Below are positions 4,551 to 45,514 of a stretch of DNA of 45,514 nucleotides, piece by piece. A model generated the notes under the pieces. The model was given only the letters and a program-made list of their open reading frames with translations. It did not search any database and was not told where the DNA came from. The translations under genes were made by a program, and so were the position numbers. This DNA is from a virus. The stretch spans positions 1-45,514 of IMG/VR virus record IMGVR_UViG_3300003375_000003; one strand, 5' to 3'. Within the stretch, counting starts at the first letter, position 1. Every line of letters starts with the position of its first letter.

Positions 4551-5366
4551 ATGGAGAATATGAAAACAAAAGAGCAATATCAGATTGACAGGGAAGTTAT
4601 AGAAGCAAACAGGGAATATAAACCCATGCTCATTAACGATCACTTCCAAAATTACAAGTCATACAATATCCCAAAGGCGCAACTGATAATTGCGGATATA
4701 CCCTGTAACATTGGTAAAAACGCTTACGGCTCTAACCCGTCATGGTATATTGACGGCGACAATAAAAATGGAGAAAGCGAAAACGCTAACGCTGCCTTTT
4801 TTGATACCGACAGCGATTTTAGGATAACTGAATTTTTACACTTCTGTTCTACGCTATTGATAAAAGAACCAAAAGAGACGGGTAAAGCCCCATGCATGAT
4901 TGTATTCTGTGAGTTTGAGCAACAATTTGAACTTATACAAAAAGCCCCTAAATACGGTCTGAACGGATATATAAATCTTGTTTTCAGAAAGAATTTCTCA
5001 GCACAAGTTTTAAAGGCAAATATGCGCGTGGTTGGGAACTGTGAATATGCCCTAATTCTTTATCGGGATAAGTTGCCAAAGTTCAACAATGAGGGTAAGA
5101 TGGTTTTTAATTGCCTTGACTGGGTAAAAGATAATACAACGCCGAAGATCCACCCCACACAAAAGCCCGTTAAGCTTTTAGAAAAGCTGATAAGGATATT
5201 TACAGACAGGGGCGATGTGGTTATAGACCCTTGCGCCGGTTCAGGTTCGACCCTATTAGCCGCTTCTCAATGCGAACGCAGATCATACGGTTTTGAGATC
5301 AAAAAGGACTTTGTAAAAGAAGCAAAGGAAAAAGTATTAGGTACGTTTCAAAAAAACTTATTCTAA
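4551..5366 (+). CDS. beta-class N6A/N4C-type DNA methyltransferase (N6_N4_Mtase-like) with a non-canonical motif IV
   Basis: C-terminal HPTQKPVKLLEKLIRIFTDRGDVVIDPCAGSGSTLLAA is the classic PF01555-type AdoMet motif I region. The N-terminal motif IV position reads IIADIPCNIG (DIPC instead of D/S/N-PP-Y/F/W). Confidence 0.8.
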   Translation: MENMKTKEQYQIDREVIEANREYKPMLINDHFQNYKSYNIPKAQLIIADIPCNIGKNAYGSNPSWYIDGDNKNGESENANAAFFDTDSDFRITEFLHFCSTLLIKEPKETGKAPCMIVFCEFEQQFELIQKAPKYGLNGYINLVFRKNFSAQVLKANMRVVGNCEYALILYRDKLPKFNNEGKMVFNCLDWVKDNTTPKIHPTQKPVKLLEKLIRIFTDRGDVVIDPCAGSGSTLLAASQCERRSYGFEIKKDFVKEAKEKVLGTFQKNLF

Positions 5367-5397
5367 TCCCATCACCTGAGTAACGAGTTAAAAGAAA

Positions 5398-5640
5398 TTG
5401 GAAAAACTTATGGCACACGAATGTCCGATATGTTATATGAATTGTCATTGCGGAGGTGATATAGATGATATGTGCCTAGACGGTACAGACGAGCAATTGC
5501 ATTGCACCCATTGCAATGAAGATGAGGAAGATGAGGAAGATGGGGAAGACTGGGAATGTCCCAAATGTGGTGAATGGAATGGGGATCACGACGATAAGTG
5601 TCCGCTGAGAAATCCGTTTTATGATAGCAATATAGATTAA
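5398..5640 (+). CDS. small, highly acidic Cys-rich (zinc-ribbon-like) protein
   Basis: 80 aa with CPIC, CTHC and CPKC pairs plus further Cys/His residues, and an EDEEDEEDGED run. Confidence 0.6.
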   Translation: MEKLMAHECPICYMNCHCGGDIDDMCLDGTDEQLHCTHCNEDEEDEEDGEDWECPKCGEWNGDHDDKCPLRNPFYDSNID

Positions 5641-5678
5641 ATAAACAAAAGCTACCAAAGGATTGCCGTCCCGGTAGC

Positions 5679-5924
5679 TTGGTGAAAAACAAAATTATGA
5701 AACTACCAAATCATAAAATATATAGACCCGTTGAAATTCCCCTGATTTGTGACGGAATGGGGATATACGAGCTTGCTTGTTGGTCCGACTATGCTTACAG
5801 GCATAAACTGTCTGATTTAGCCATAGAAGTTGACAGGTGCGTTAAGAAACTGCCTTTAATAGATCAGGCGCAACTTAATAAACTGACATACTACAAACCG
5901 TATGTTTTGGAAATGGTAGGGTAA
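5679..5924 (+). CDS. hypothetical protein (81 aa)
   Basis: Clean ORF in the operon orientation. Its stop lies 2 nt before the left target duplication of cassette 1. Confidence 0.55.
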   Translation: MVKNKIMKLPNHKIYRPVEIPLICDGMGIYELACWSDYAYRHKLSDLAIEVDRCVKKLPLIDQAQLNKLTYYKPYVLEMVG

Positions 5925-5934
5925 TTTAAAAACA

Positions 5935-6491
5935 GGTAACTATATACTTATTTAACATAAAATGTAAAACAATATGGAACTACAATTTGATTACATAAAA
6001 TGCCCCTTAAACCGTTATACGTTTAAGGTCAAGAATATTAGGGAATGGGTAGAACGTAATTGCGAAGGCACAACACTTAATCTATTTGCTGGAATAACAA
6101 AGTTAAATATAGATGAAATACGAAACGATTTAGACACTATTGATGCTATTGCTGATTACAGGATGGATGCACTTGATTTTGTAAAAAAATGGAAGGGAAA
6201 GAAGTTTGACACTATACTACTTGACCCGCCATATGCGTATCGTAAAAGCATGGAAATGTATAAAGGAATAAGATGCTCGCCTTTCAGGCAACTGAAAGAT
6301 GAGTGTCCGAAGATATTATCTCCAAACGGTAAAATAATCACTTTCGGCTACCATTCAAATATATTTGGTTCAGGTCGTGGATTTATTGTTGAGAAAATTG
6401 CACTATTCAGTCATGGTGGGGCTATTCACGATACAATAGCATCTGTTGAACGTAAAATTAACAATCAAGGGTAAATAAGTATATAGTAATT
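5935..6491. mobile_element. TIR-bounded mobile insertion cassette 1 (557 bp; cargo is a small DPPY methyltransferase; no transposase)
   Basis: Left end is GGTAACTATATACTTATTTAACAT (5935-5958). The reverse complement of the right end is AATTACTATATACTTATTTACCCT (6468-6491). The direct repeat TAAAAACA abuts both ends (5927-5934 and 6492-6499). Confidence 0.7.
5974..6474 (+). CDS. small AdoMet-dependent methyltransferase with a DPPY motif (putative DNA N6A/N4C MTase)
   Basis: 166 aa. Motif I-like LNLFAGIT, an acidic NDLD, and motif IV LLDPPYAY. Its stop codon lies inside the right TIR of cassette 1. Confidence 0.65.
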   Translation: MELQFDYIKCPLNRYTFKVKNIREWVERNCEGTTLNLFAGITKLNIDEIRNDLDTIDAIADYRMDALDFVKKWKGKKFDTILLDPPYAYRKSMEMYKGIRCSPFRQLKDECPKILSPNGKIITFGYHSNIFGSGRGFIVEKIALFSHGGAIHDTIASVERKINNQG

Positions 6492-6608
6492 TAAAAACAA
6501 TACCGTGCTACTTGGCGGCGGCACGGCATAAACATCAATCGTTTGTTACATAGTTTCAAATTATGTGCCAAACGCAATAAAGAAAACGTTAAAGCACAAT
6601 TTTTAATT

Positions 6609-7397
6609 ATGGCATTAAGAGATCAGCCCTACTTACCCCTATATGTTCAGGATTTTATGACGGATGAAAAGTTGGCAGAATGTAGCGCAACAGCTAACGG
6701 GGTTTACATACGTATTATGTGTCTTTTACATAAATCAGAGGAGTACGGCACTATTTTGCTTAAGCAAAAGGATAAGCAAAACTCAAGCAAAAACATCAAT
6801 TTCGCACACAAACTTGCAAAATTTATGCCATATCCTTACTCCGATGTTTTGTCGGGTTTGGAGGAATTATTGAACGAAAATGTTTTGATGATTGAGGGCG
6901 ATAAGCTAATACAGAAGCGGATGTTAAAGGATTCGTGCATTAGCGATAGTAGGTCAAAAGCAGGTAAAAATGGGTACGCCTCAAAAACTTTTGCTCAAGC
7001 AAAACCTCAAGCAAACAGTCAAGCAAATCCTGAATATGAAAATGAAAGTGTAAGTTATAATGAGGGTATAGGTAATAATATAATTCCCGACTTTCAAAAT
7101 TTTGTCCCTCCTTCTGTTTTAGATGCCGTAATTGTCAGACCTCCGAACGCACCTGAATTTCAAAAAGTGTTAGAATTTTTTGTAGGTCATGGGAAAACCG
7201 AGGCAGACGCAACAACTTTCTTTAATCACTTTGAAGGATTAGGATGGAGAAAAGGAATATCCCCAATATTCGCATGGAGATCAATTGCAAACAACTGGAT
7301 CGCTAACATTCCCAATTTCATTAAAAACGAAAACGACAAAAAAGATATTCCAATTTCCCCTGCTGAACAAAAACTACTAAACAAATACAAAAGATAA
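6609..7397 (+). CDS. DUF1376-type replication initiation/primosome protein
   Basis: From ATG 6609: MALRDQPYLPLYVQDFMTDEKLAECSATANGVYIRIMCLLH, which matches the DUF1376 N-terminal signature. The track start 6543 is a TTG. The current stop TAA (7395-7397) lies inside the left TIR of cassette 2. Confidence 0.65.
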   Translation: MALRDQPYLPLYVQDFMTDEKLAECSATANGVYIRIMCLLHKSEEYGTILLKQKDKQNSSKNINFAHKLAKFMPYPYSDVLSGLEELLNENVLMIEGDKLIQKRMLKDSCISDSRSKAGKNGYASKTFAQAKPQANSQANPEYENESVSYNEGIGNNIIPDFQNFVPPSVLDAVIVRPPNAPEFQKVLEFFVGHGKTEADATTFFNHFEGLGWRKGISPIFAWRSIANNWIANIPNFIKNENDKKDIPISPAEQKLLNKYKR

Positions 7398-8387
7398 CTA
7401 TATACTTATTCACCCTAAAAAGAAAAACGAGATGAAAGACATAGATTTTAATAATGCTTTAAAAGCACTTGTAAAATGAAAAAGCGACTACTTATATCTT
7501 TTATCGGGGGTAGAACATCGGAATTTATGCTATGGTGGTTAATGAACAAATGGGAGGACAGACACCTTTACGATATAATAGTTGTATTTGCTAATACGGG
7601 TAAAGAGGTAGAAGGAACGTTGTTTTTTGTTGACGAGGTGGCGCAGGAATTTAACATACCTGTTGTGTGGGTGGAGGGCTACCCAAGCGATAAGGGTAAA
7701 GGTTGGGCAGTCAATCATAAAATTGTCACCTATGAAACAGCCAGTAGAAACGGAGAGCCGTTCGAAGCAATGATAAAAAAGTTAGGCATCCCTTGTAGTG
7801 AAGCTCCATTTTGCTCAGACCAACTAAAAAGAAGTGCTATTGAAAGCTATTTACGTTCGATAGGTTGGGAAAATGGTAGTTATGATGTAGCTATTGGTAT
7901 TAGGATTGACGAACCTAAAAGATACAAAACCAAACGAGGGGTAAGGAAAGTAAAGAAAAACAGGATTTTACCATTGGTTGATATTTTCCCTGTTGATAAG
8001 AAATGGATTTTAACATGGTGGAAACAACAAACATTCGACTTAGACATACACGAGGATGATGGGAACTGTGATAACTGTTGGAAAAAGAGCGACAAGGTTT
8101 TATATCGAAACGCCATAAGAAAACCTAAATCTTTCAACTGGTGGCAAAGAATGACAGATACATACCAATGTATAAGGGTTGAAGGGGTAGTGAATTTCTT
8201 TAGAAAAAACAGGTCACCCAAAGACATTATCTGTCAGGCACAAAAGACAACACAGGAGGAAATAAAGCAACAATCATTATTTGACGAAGTATATGCATGT
8301 GGTGAAAGCTGCGAACCATTTTAAAAGATGGGTTTTACCCACCCTTAGCAGTATTGCAATAACAGGGTAAATAAGTATATAGTTACC
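7393..8387. mobile_element. TIR-bounded mobile insertion cassette 2 (995 bp; cargo is a PAPS-reductase-like gene; no transposase)
   Basis: Left end is GATAACTATATACTTATTCACCCT (7393-7416). The reverse complement of the right end is GGTAACTATATACTTATTTACCCT (8364-8387), so 22 of 24 positions are identical. A perfect 8-bp direct repeat ATACAAAA abuts both ends (7385-7392 and 8388-8395). Confidence 0.8.
7476..8324 (+). CDS. PAPS-reductase/PP-loop ATP-pyrophosphatase family protein (DndC-like fold)
   Basis: N-terminal PP-loop variant LISFIGGRTSE (compare SFSGGKDS), FCSDQLKRSAIE and GIRIDEPKR (compare GxRxdES..R). C-terminal Cys clusters DGNCDNCWKK and ACGESCEPF. Confidence 0.75.
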   Translation: MKKRLLISFIGGRTSEFMLWWLMNKWEDRHLYDIIVVFANTGKEVEGTLFFVDEVAQEFNIPVVWVEGYPSDKGKGWAVNHKIVTYETASRNGEPFEAMIKKLGIPCSEAPFCSDQLKRSAIESYLRSIGWENGSYDVAIGIRIDEPKRYKTKRGVRKVKKNRILPLVDIFPVDKKWILTWWKQQTFDLDIHEDDGNCDNCWKKSDKVLYRNAIRKPKSFNWWQRMTDTYQCIRVEGVVNFFRKNRSPKDIICQAQKTTQEEIKQQSLFDEVYACGESCEPF

Positions 8388-8403
8388 ATACAAAAAATAA
8401 ATA

Positions 8404-9903
8404 ATGGCACTAAATATAAAAAAAGATTTCAATAATAACAGATCGCGCAAGCCAGACTTAACAACTTTGGTTTACGGGAAAATACCACCTCAGGCGCCTG
8501 AATTTGAGGAGGCTATTCTTGGTTGTTGCTTACATGAAAACGGACGGCACACATTTGAAATTGTGTTGGGTATAATTCAACAGCCTGATATTTTCTATGT
8601 AGATGCTCACCAAAAGATATTTGCAGCCCTATTGCGCATGTATGAAGCTCATTTGCCTATTGATTTGCTTCTTACCACGGAGGAATTGAGAAAATCTAAT
8701 GAATTAGAATTGGTTGGCGGTGGTTATTACCTGACAAACCTTATGCGTAAGGTTATCACAGATGAAAATGTAGAATTTCATTGCAGGGTAATAGTTGAGA
8801 AATTTATTCAGCGTGAATTAATACGCATTTCAGGTAATTGCATTGGTGACGCTTACGAGGATAATACAGACCCTTTTGATTTGGGAGAAAAAATAAGCGA
8901 CGAACTATTTAAAGTTTTATCCGGTAACATCAAAAAAGAACCTAAAAACATATCCTTAAGTGTAAAGGAATTATCAGAAAAACTTGAGGAACTTAAAAAA
9001 TCAAAAAGCGATTTAACGGGTGTGCCGTCAGGATTTTCTGAACTGGACGCAATAACGGGAGGATGGCAAAAATCAGACCTTACTATACTTGCCGCCCGTC
9101 CTTCTGTTGGTAAAACGGCATTCGCAATAGCTTTATCGCTTAATGCAGCATTGGCCGGTAAGCCAAGCGTAATTTTTGAGTTGGAGATGAATACGGGGCA
9201 GGTAATTATACGTATGGTATCATCTGTTGGAGAAGTTGAAATGCACCAATTAAGTCACCCAAAAAATATGACGGATGATGAATGGAGTAGGTATTACGCC
9301 GCCGCCGATAAAGTTGGAAAATTGAAAATATTTATTGATGATGAAGGAGGATTAAACATTTTTGAACTACGGGCAAAAGCAAGGAGATTAAAGCAAAAAC
9401 ACGATATAGAATTAATAATTATTGACTATCTGCAAATAATGTCAGGAATTGGAGGCGAGGGAAATAGGGAGCAGGAAATTAGTAAGATCAGCAGGGATTT
9501 AAAGAAATTGGCTAAAGACTTAGATGTTCCGATTATCGCATTATCTCAGCTTAACCGGAGCATGGAAAATACTAATGGAGAGTCAACGCGAGATCCTAAG
9601 TTATCAGATTTGCGGGAATCGGGAGCTATTGAACAAGATGCAGACAATGTAATTTTCATACACGATCCATCTGCCAAGATGATTGCCGCCAATAACATGT
9701 TTATGGGAAAGAAAATCATAAATATAGCTAAGGGTAGAAATATCGGGGTTCATGTGATACCCCTTGAGTTCAATAAAGATATTCAGAGATGGCGAGATGT
9801 TGACCAACCGAGTAATCAATTCCCGACAGAAAAACCGCCCGACAACCCCAAAGCAGGAATAAAAGGCGACTACAACAACTTCAACCGAAAAGACTGGGAA
9901 TAA
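8404..9903 (+). CDS. dnaB: DnaB-family replicative helicase
   Basis: GVPSGFSELDAITGGWQKSDLTILAARPSVGKTAFA (Walker A), IIDYLQIM, ALSQLNRS and LRESGAIEQDAD are canonical DnaB motifs. 499 aa. Confidence 0.95.
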   Translation: MALNIKKDFNNNRSRKPDLTTLVYGKIPPQAPEFEEAILGCCLHENGRHTFEIVLGIIQQPDIFYVDAHQKIFAALLRMYEAHLPIDLLLTTEELRKSNELELVGGGYYLTNLMRKVITDENVEFHCRVIVEKFIQRELIRISGNCIGDAYEDNTDPFDLGEKISDELFKVLSGNIKKEPKNISLSVKELSEKLEELKKSKSDLTGVPSGFSELDAITGGWQKSDLTILAARPSVGKTAFAIALSLNAALAGKPSVIFELEMNTGQVIIRMVSSVGEVEMHQLSHPKNMTDDEWSRYYAAADKVGKLKIFIDDEGGLNIFELRAKARRLKQKHDIELIIIDYLQIMSGIGGEGNREQEISKISRDLKKLAKDLDVPIIALSQLNRSMENTNGESTRDPKLSDLRESGAIEQDADNVIFIHDPSAKMIAANNMFMGKKIINIAKGRNIGVHVIPLEFNKDIQRWRDVDQPSNQFPTEKPPDNPKAGIKGDYNNFNRKDWE

Positions 9904-35490: not shown

Positions 35491-35787
35491 TTAAGCTGTT
35501 ACTTTGCAGCCTTCGATATTATTCGTATGCTTGTCACCCTTAGTTACGTAGTTCTGATAAATGTGTTTAATCCTTACATGGTCGAAGTTTTCACTTAGTG
35601 GCACGTATGTTTGATAAGCGTCGGTAATGATACGTGAGTTTTCCTCAACGTTTGCTACCATAATCGGCAACAATGTTTCAGCCTTAGTATTTGGTACTAC
35701 AAACGTCCTGATCAGGATTGGTTTCATGATACACAAATATAAGCATTTTAAAGTAAAAAGCAGGTGTAAGAATACACCCGCCCCCAT
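35491..35787 (-). pseudogene. IS1595-family (ISXO2-like DDE) transposase fragment
   Basis: FVVPNTKAETLLPIMVANVEENSRIITDAYQTYVPLSENFDHVRIKHIYQNYVTKGDKHTNNIEG matches the central and C-terminal IS1595 DDE pattern (VVPN.K..TL.PI....V...S.I.TDE...Y..L....H..VNH....YV.G..HTN.IEGFW). The N-terminal zinc ribbon, first Asp region and C-terminal end are missing. Confidence 0.8.
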
Positions 35788-45267: not shown

Positions 45268-45514
45268 ATGAAAATAGTAAACAAAACTCTCGTCTCCGTT
45301 GACACATCCGACCTAAAAGACGGGGTGTTTTTCAACAAAACAATTATCGAAATATCCGATTCGTGTTTTTACAACATGCGTGATTTGGTAGAAATCAATT
45401 GTCCGAAAGTTAAAAAAATCGGCAATGATGCCCTTAGCTCTTGCGGTGCGCTCGTAACGGTCAACCTGCCTGTATGTACTACCATCGGCAATGATGCCCT
45501 TCGCTCTTGCGGTG
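45268..45514 (+). CDS. BspA-type LRR protein, 5' part (continues at nt 1 of the window)
   Basis: ATG 45268 gives MKIVNKTLVSVDTSDLKDGVFFNKTIIEISDSCFYNMRDLVEINCPKVKKIGNDALSSCGALVTVNLPVCTTIGNDALRSCG. The frame is open to the window end, and the last 38 nt equal nt 1-38. Confidence 0.75.
   Translation, partial: MKIVNKTLVSVDTSDLKDGVFFNKTIIEISDSCFYNMRDLVEINCPKVKKIGNDALSSCGALVTVNLPVCTTIGNDALRSCG
45418..45514. repeat. first 1.6 units of the 66-bp tandem array that continues at nt 1
   Basis: Region 45418-45476 matches the repeat unit (Ser-Ser-Cys-Gly variant). Region 45477-45514 duplicates nt 1-38. Confidence 0.9.

Follow-up and report, generated by a model that had tools for sequence, protein, structure and literature searches.

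A methyltransferase gene cassette in a temperate phage genome, probably reduced from a cargo-carrying IS1595-family transposon

The virus record IMGVR_UViG_3300003375_000003 of IMG/VR (positions 1 to 45,514; the whole of this stretch is referred to here as the window) represents a temperate tailed phage of about 45.5 kb with genes for terminase, portal, capsid protein and integrase. Between positions 5935 and 6491 it carries a 557 bp cassette (cassette A), the sole content of which is an open reading frame (ORF) for a 166-aa S-adenosylmethionine (SAM)-dependent amino-methyltransferase. Cassette A is very probably a non-autonomous derivative of a cargo-carrying transposon of the IS1595 family, that is, a transporter insertion sequence (tIS) reduced to a mobile insertion cassette (MIC). 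It has insertion sequence (IS)-type repeats at both ends, a passenger gene, no transposase gene, and a flanking duplication. Elements of this kind are already known, while the phage habitat and the methylase-rich cargo described below have apparently not been reported before.

Cassette A and its family of paired ends

The left copy of the 8-bp target-site duplication (TSD; TAAAAACA, 5927-5934) begins 2 nt further on from the stop codon (5922-5924) of an upstream 75-aa ORF, and is followed by the left terminal inverted repeat (IRL type, GGTAACTATATACTTATTTAACAT, 5935-5958, plus strand), which has an intact GG tip and two inner mismatches to the family consensus. The methyltransferase gene (5974-6474, plus strand) carries motif I (NLFAG) and motif IV (DPPY) and is intact relative to its homologues; its TAA stop codon (6472-6474) is supplied by, and lies inside, the right terminal inverted repeat (IRR, AATTACTATATACTTATTTACCCT, 6468-6491, minus strand). 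Positions 5-24 of the IRR correspond perfectly to the consensus, and its outermost 4 nt are AATT, not GGTA. The second copy of TAAAAACA follows at 6492-6499. A preliminary description of this DNA, made by reading the sequence, had placed the ends and 8-bp flanks at these coordinates and the stop codon of the 166-aa ORF inside the right repeat, and all of this holds on re-reading. Searches of the 557 bp with the family transposases (tblastn) did not find a transposase.

The same description reported a core common to four ends in two cassettes. The window contains four copies in all of this 14-mer (ACTATATACTTATT; 5939+, 6474-, 7397+ and 8370-), arranged as two inward-facing pairs, one belonging to cassette A and the other to a sister element, cassette B (995 bp, 7393-8387, plus strand), which has the same 24-nt ends and starts 901 bp away, in agreement with the two insertions about 900 bp apart that had been noted. 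When up to two mismatches to ACTATATACTTATT are allowed there are five sites in the window, a count reached by none of 100 dinucleotide-preserving shuffles.

IMG/VR contigs were scanned with TAACTATATACTTATT and then with GGYAACTATATAYYTATT, and duplicates were removed. This gave 30 distinct elements with inward-facing paired ends, 28 of them besides the two in the window, ranging from 231 to 2669 bp, and a 24-nt end consensus (GGTAACTATATACTTATTYACCCT) was derived from the 60 ends. Perfect (8/8) flanking duplications are present in 18 of the 30, including both window cassettes, and 7/8 duplications in two more. The duplicated sequences differ between elements and are 90% A+T, and comparison of these flanks at other offsets gives a null probability of 6.5e-5 per pair for an 8/8 match. 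Duplication statistics of this kind are the signature of staggered-cut transposition, and exclude a conserved intergenic signal. Members of the IS1595 family usually carry flanking 8-bp TSDs (PMC8101967), and one member, ISApl4, makes A/T-rich 8-bp repeats (PMC12561309).

A complete transposase gene is absent from 23 of the 30 elements, both window cassettes included, and the other seven (L001, L004, L018, L171, L175, L181 and L182) are autonomous. Their transposases are 308-333 aa in length, and match Pfam DDE_Tnp_IS1595 (PF12762, E 3e-41) and the NCBIfam model NF033547, 'IS1595 family transposase' (208-225 bits against a cut-off of 75). The N-terminal zinc ribbon (PF12760) fell below the cut-off in our own scan (E 0.0023); it is present in the precomputed annotation of nearly all close homologues, and its cysteine pairs are conserved in the alignment. 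All IS1595 groups except IS1016 have this zinc ribbon (PMC8101967). The cargo-shuttling family with inverted repeats and 8-bp duplications that the preliminary description had proposed is supported, with at least 30 elements, perfect duplications of different sequence at 18 of them, and autonomous relatives carrying an IS1595 transposase.

In autonomous copies the order is IRL, a transposase gene (zinc ribbon and DDE_Tnp_IS1595 domains), an accessory ORF of 75-87 aa, cargo and IRR; in L018 and L175 the cargo lies upstream of the transposase, unlike its usual place beyond the accessory ORF. The accessory ORF is conserved, sits immediately 3' of the transposase gene, and often has a stop/start overlap with the cargo. 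It is found in L001 (3951-4190), L004, L018, L056, L171, L175 and L286, and as a remnant in the window (7432-7479). It shows a weak match to phage regulators of the CII/CP76 type and no corresponding family in PHROG or NCBIfam, and may act as a cofactor or regulator of transposition.

No names of catalogued IS were found on the NCBI-sourced members of the transposase clusters. The PHROGs v4 families that match the transposase (phrog_25593, phrog_9697 and phrog_13752) are labelled 'unknown function', so standard phage annotation would not flag transposons such as these. Elsewhere in the window, a fragment of an IS1595-type transposase is encoded by a 98-aa ORF (35491-35787, minus strand) that lies between the capsid-like gene and an upstream structural gene. 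The fragment has about 40% identity to residues 180-246 of the family transposases (tblastn, E 1e-8) and matches phrog_13752 and phrog_9697. There are no recognizable ends flanking it, so it looks like what is left of a separate and older IS1595 insertion into the structural module.

Cargo genes and the sister cassette

Cargo was assigned by profile searches, with several small ORFs giving no match. A profile-supported DNA methyltransferase is carried by 13 of the 30 elements, and these belong to five families: N6_N4 (L001, L059, L061 and L171), C5 (L072, L248 and L249), D12 Dam-type (L181, L182 and L052, the last barely over the Pfam cut-off), PF05869 Dam (L268), and the small DPPY type of phrog_11619 (window cassette A and L081). 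Next come PAPS-reductase-like proteins (L004, L285 and window cassette B) and nucleases, with a PD-(D/E)XK nuclease lying beside the methyltransferase in L061, L181 and L182. L276 carries a pentapeptide-repeat protein. The dominance of methyltransferases agrees with the earlier suggestion that these elements spread DNA-modification cargo.

The 166-aa protein of cassette A matches phrog_11619, 'DNA methyltransferase' (E 1.2e-38), and gave no Pfam or NCBIfam match above cut-off. The NLFAG (approximately residues 36-40) and DPPY (84-87) motifs are invariant in 40 homologues. Its AlphaFold model (pLDDT 82) has a Rossmann methyltransferase fold, and the nearest Foldseek neighbors of the model are methyltransferases that act on amino groups of nucleic acids, namely TrmN, Trm11, the RsmD-like HI0767, M1.HpyAVI and M.TaqI (E 2e-4 to 2e-3). 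The best structural neighbors include tRNA and rRNA enzymes, and some sources call the homologues Trm11 or RsmD; the predicted substrate is likely to be DNA.

Genes of this type are common in phages, with homologues of 53-81% identity at 38 IMG/VR loci. No family repeats were found at any of 43 homologue loci examined, including those of 90% and 85% identical homologues, and the neighboring genes there are unrelated to those of the window. The preliminary description would have given up its proposal if homologous phages had the methyltransferase gene at the same place without repeats and the flank were a conserved signal; the repeat-less homologues lie in unrelated contexts, and the flank is therefore no such signal. 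Nucleotide homology to the 90% and 85% identical homologues ends near codon 162, and the last residues and stop codon come from the junction with the right repeat. The window methyltransferase thus appears, from these comparisons, to be an ordinary phage gene that was captured. The cargo methyltransferase of L081, an element with its own 8/8 duplication, belongs to the family of the window enzyme, with 30% identity, and together with cassette A indicates that this family has been captured at least twice.

Upstream of the 90%-identical homologue, in L377 (2-1146), is a gene for a Dam-like methyltransferase closely resembling the cargo of L052, and there are no repeats at that locus. This resemblance indicates that the 'methylase islands' of phages and the cargo of the cassettes share one gene pool. 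The sequence GTAATTTA, found just upstream of the L377 homologue, was considered as a conserved signal and rejected, as the neighbors are unrelated and there is no downstream repeat.

Cassette B is flanked by 8-bp duplications of a different sequence (ATACAAAA, 7385-7392 and 8388-8395). The tip of its IRL (7393-7416, plus strand) is GA, not GG, and its IRR (8364-8387) matches the consensus perfectly. Its PAPS-reductase-like gene (7476-8324, plus strand; phrog_424, E 1.8e-46) is preceded by a remnant of the accessory ORF (MKDIDFNNALKALVK, 7432-7479, plus strand) that matches the C-terminus of the accessory gene of the autonomous element L004. The remnant comprises the last 15 codons of that ORF, with the TAAAATGA stop/start overlap of L004 retained, and since both have been kept, cassette B is taken to be a deletion derivative that has lost its transposase gene. 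In-silico removal of cassette B and one copy of ATACAAAA leaves a 262-aa ORF ending ...KYKK*, with the start of dnaB 3 nt later, and in at least 18 relatives a homologue of the 262-aa ORF directly abuts or overlaps dnaB with no repeats between them. The insertion point is two codons ahead of the stop of the 262-aa ORF (7385-7397 and 8388-8406). The left repeat of cassette B now provides the last codon and stop, changing ...KYKK* to ...KYKR*, and the ORF is split from dnaB by the cassette. The anatomy of cassette B thus lends support to the transposon origin of both cassettes.

The right tip and alternative readings

The plus strand at the right tip of cassette A reads AATT where the consensus has TACC, so that three of the last four bases differ, a degree of change not seen in any other copy. 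With the consensus tip the right junction would read ...TATAGTTACCTAAAAACA. The altered tip copies the six bases (GTAATT, 5921-5926) that precede the left duplication, giving a direct repeat of duplication plus six preceding nucleotides (GTAATTTAAAAACA) at 5921-5934 and 6486-6499. The preliminary description had already recognized that the flank identity extends beyond 8 bp; the longer repeat is real, and its length is 14 nt rather than the 13 nt given there. A comparison of the four ends had been suggested there as a way to choose between an 8-bp duplication with a decayed tip and a truncated repeat. The rule of the family favors an 8-bp duplication with an altered tip over a 14-nt event, although the additional 6 nt of identity are unusual. 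The tip may have arisen through a short tract of conversion or repair that involved both junctions. As a general explanation of mutated tips, gene conversion was rejected after the junctions were compared by eye: it fits cassette A and, in part, cassette B and L037, but not L052, L056, L061 or L067.

Ends of autonomous copies start with GG in 14 of 14 cases, compared to 39 of the 46 ends of non-autonomous copies, a difference (0/14 versus 7/46 non-GG) that amounts to a trend only. The pattern points to decay of the tips in copies that have ceased to be mobilized, or for which staying in place is selected.

The history of cassette A may then be outlined as follows. A methyltransferase gene would have been taken from an ordinary phage locus, its stop codon coming from the right repeat. 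Transposase acting in trans, encoded by an autonomous copy on another phage or prophage in the same cell, would bind both ends and cut an A/T-rich intergenic target with an 8-bp stagger just past the stop codon of the 75-aa ORF; the cassette would insert, and gap repair would yield TAAAAACA on both sides. The right tip would later have changed from TACC to AATT, probably preventing further cleavage and leaving the cassette fixed. The phage probably profits through self-methylation, as a defense from restriction by the host.

Before insertion, the empty-site junction would read GGGTAATTTAAAAACAATACCGTG. Just past the right duplication of cassette A is a hairpin, CCGTGC(12 nt)GCACGG (6503-6527), which in the reconstructed empty site would sit about 15 nt after the 75-aa ORF and may be the terminator of that ORF.

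Several observations count against the descent of cassette A from a transposon in this manner. Ten of the 30 pairs lack a flanking duplication (L004/L026, L038, L043, L072, L254, L259 6321-7028, L268, L276, L277 and L285), and so some copies moved or were rearranged by other routes. Among the 18 elements with perfect duplications, only cassette A has a flank repeat longer than 8 nt, which simple decay explains poorly; that the tip matches the opposite flank by pure chance is unlikely, at a rough estimate of about 1% across the 18. Mobilization in trans is inferred because the window has no intact transposase, only the diverged fragment at 35491-35787. An empty site for the insertion of cassette A was not found by exact-protein look-ups with four neighboring proteins, whose sole match was a further assembly of this phage, from a single sample. 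Viral and metagenome relatives are at most 71% identical in the neighboring 262-aa protein, and empty-site support at the level of synteny was obtained for cassette B only. Lastly, the case for transposition of family members is built from sequence comparison.

Some of these features also bear on whether cassette A is still mobile, with its altered right tip tolerated or a sub-terminal site used, and is an active element instead of a fixed relic. We consider this unlikely. Its cargo ORF is intact and the interior of the repeat is perfect, and of the seven non-GG tips in non-autonomous ends several stand beside a perfect duplication, so this variation either is compatible with at least one past insertion or accumulates quickly. 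However, the autonomous ends are without exception GG, G is found at positions 1 and 2 in 57 and 54 of the 60 ends, and the changes in cassette A are the most extensive of any copy; cleavage of DDE transposons normally depends on their outermost nucleotides.

Recombination in place of transposition is very unlikely as the source of cassette A. The 24-nt ends could serve as portable homology by which cargo or cassettes are swapped, or the right end could have been truncated from the start by microhomology-mediated illegitimate recombination via GTAATTTAAAAACA. Rad52-like and YqaJ-like proteins are encoded just upstream in the window, a sequence of about 30 nt beside the right end is common to elements with different cargoes (cassette B, L052 and L038), and the 10 pairs without duplications are as expected of recombining copies. 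The 14-nt repeat exceeds the 8 bp of the family, and the additional 6 nt replace the tip exactly. On the other hand, the complete left end abuts TAAAAACA at the exact 8-bp spacing, the right repeat has its full 24 nt with positions 5-24 perfect, and none of the 17 other elements with perfect duplications has a 14-nt duplication. Exchange from end to end would also need an earlier element at the site, itself transposed there. Recombination probably does occur within the family, as an additional process acting on existing copies: the pairs without duplications and the presence of a third end nearby in L043 and L268 suggest that some copies stand in tandem or are nested, and that copies from different sites recombine.

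The reading of the 24-nt motifs as operators, promoters or terminators around accessory genes, with flanking repeats that are coincidental or part of the signal, is hardly credible and was rejected: although the TATAGT of the motif and an internal -35-like hexamer give outward sigma-70-like matches at 6458-6487 (+), 8354-8383 (+) and 5968-5939 (-), and left-type ends lie 15-60 nt upstream of the first ORF, promoter-like matches are not enriched (11 versus 8.9 expected from shuffles), there is no Rfam match in 5000-9000, the motif is absent from the 43 methyltransferase homologue loci and from 124 loci bearing a homologue of the neighboring 262-aa ORF, the motifs always form inward-facing pairs around 0.2-2.7 kb and enclose an IS1595 transposase in seven cases, and the flanking 8-mers differ by site yet match within the element in 18 of 30, far above the null rate. 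The outward sigma-70-like matches score 9-10 of 12, with TATAGT lying about 4 nt inside the tip; the promoters of Bacteroidota are unlike the sigma-70 consensus. An outward promoter in the ends, if the predicted matches are functional, could maintain expression of the phage genes downstream of an insertion.

Phage habitat and comparison with known systems

The window terminase is distantly related to terminases of Flavobacterium phages. Tandem 66-nt repeats are found at 1-396 and 45345-45514, and the final 38 nt of the window are the same as the first 38 nt; the contig probably closes on itself via this repeat array, as a circular or terminally redundant genome. Autonomous copies also have phage genes as neighbors: a portal gene (L175), an integrase and a terminase on either side (L171), and a nearby tape-measure gene (L182). 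A transposase 94% identical to that of L175 occurs in one phage, seen in 54 collection blocks, beside genes for NinG and a DUF551 protein. More than 120 transposase clusters of at least 65% identity were found among 5.8 billion proteins, many of them on contigs of 40-110 kb.

Isolated phages (INPHARED) gave no transposase of this lineage, the matches being metagenomic records of about 40% identity, and no nucleotide match to the cassette region. In a set of representative genomes covering 185,579 species, the exact 23-nt end was present on only three contigs, two from Bacteroidota metagenome-assembled genomes (MAGs) and one from a 'Methanobacterium' MAG. A cassette in a 'Methanobacterium sp.' MAG (L249, PLXT01000115.1) is 694 bp long, has consensus ends and a C5-methyltransferase as cargo, and is flanked by an 8/8 duplication; the 170-kb contig on which it sits is binned as archaeal. 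Either the contig was binned wrongly or the host range of the element is much wider.

The chances are about even that this IS1595 lineage is specialized on phage genomes as a gene-shuttling platform, which repeatedly captures methyltransferases, PAPS-reductase-like enzymes, nucleases and small genes, and inserts at A/T-rich intergenic sites of unrelated phages, apparently those of Bacteroidota, after which tip mutations fix useful cassettes. It would then be a transposon route for the exchange of anti-restriction functions. Phages have been viewed as poor vehicles of transposable elements in which IS are poorly tolerated (Leclercq, Gilbert and Cordaux, PMC3429520), and a compact IS1595 lineage resident in phage genomes contrasts with that view. 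Searches of open-access text turned up no account of methyltransferase-carrying IS1595 cassettes in phages. If the pattern holds, it provides a mechanism for the spread of orphan methyltransferases and other anti-restriction genes between unrelated phages, and would explain both the building of phage 'methylase islands' and the patchy distribution of such genes. With their short defined ends and small transposase, these elements are also a possible tool for inserting cargo into phage genomes.

Passenger-bearing IS such as ISNha5, whether of the IS1595 family or of others, are known as tIS (Siguier, Gagnevin and Chandler 2009, as cited in PMC11891212 and PMC8101967). The autonomous relatives of cassette A resemble IS1595-family tIS in their DDE_Tnp_IS1595 transposase, which has an N-terminal zinc ribbon, in short inverted repeats that open with GG, in 8-bp duplications and in passengers lying inside the repeats. 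They differ in being found mainly in phage contigs and not in bacterial chromosomes, in carrying mainly DNA methyltransferases, and in the conserved 75-87-aa ORF after the transposase; the window copy, in addition, has no transposase. The ISNwi1 group is a candidate subgroup: its ends, of the form ggnnatTAT, and its passenger-bearing members of 1.75-4.75 kb resemble the GGTAACTAT ends and 1.8-2.7 kb lengths seen here.

ISApl4, of the IS1016 group of the family, shares A/T-rich 8-bp repeats and GG-starting ends, and differs in being 712 bp long (PMC12561309), without a zinc ribbon or internal cargo, and in carrying resistance genes only as a pseudo-compound transposon on a bacterial chromosome. 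The eukaryotic Merlin elements have a related DDE_Tnp_IS1595 domain, conserved 5'-GG repeats and duplications of 8-9 bp, and are only distantly related and cargo-free (PMC8101967).

The anatomy of cassette A, with IS ends around passenger gene(s), no transposase and a flanking duplication, is that of MICs and miniature inverted-repeat transposable elements (MITEs). MIC231 of the Bacillus cereus group is derived from IS231 (IS4 family), is mobilized in trans by the cognate transposase, and is found in bacterial chromosomes and plasmids. Cassette A differs in being IS1595-derived and in a phage genome, and its mobilization in trans is predicted from sequence. Single accessory genes between short conserved sequences also occur in phages as the promoter-stem-loop cassettes of T4-type phages. 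Integron attC cassettes in phages are likewise single accessory genes between short conserved sequences, with modular gain and loss (PMC9892861). Both of these systems depend on a tyrosine recombinase or on homologous recombination and produce no target duplication, whereas the family of cassette A has inverted ends, 8-bp duplications as the rule, and a DDE transposase in its full-length copies.

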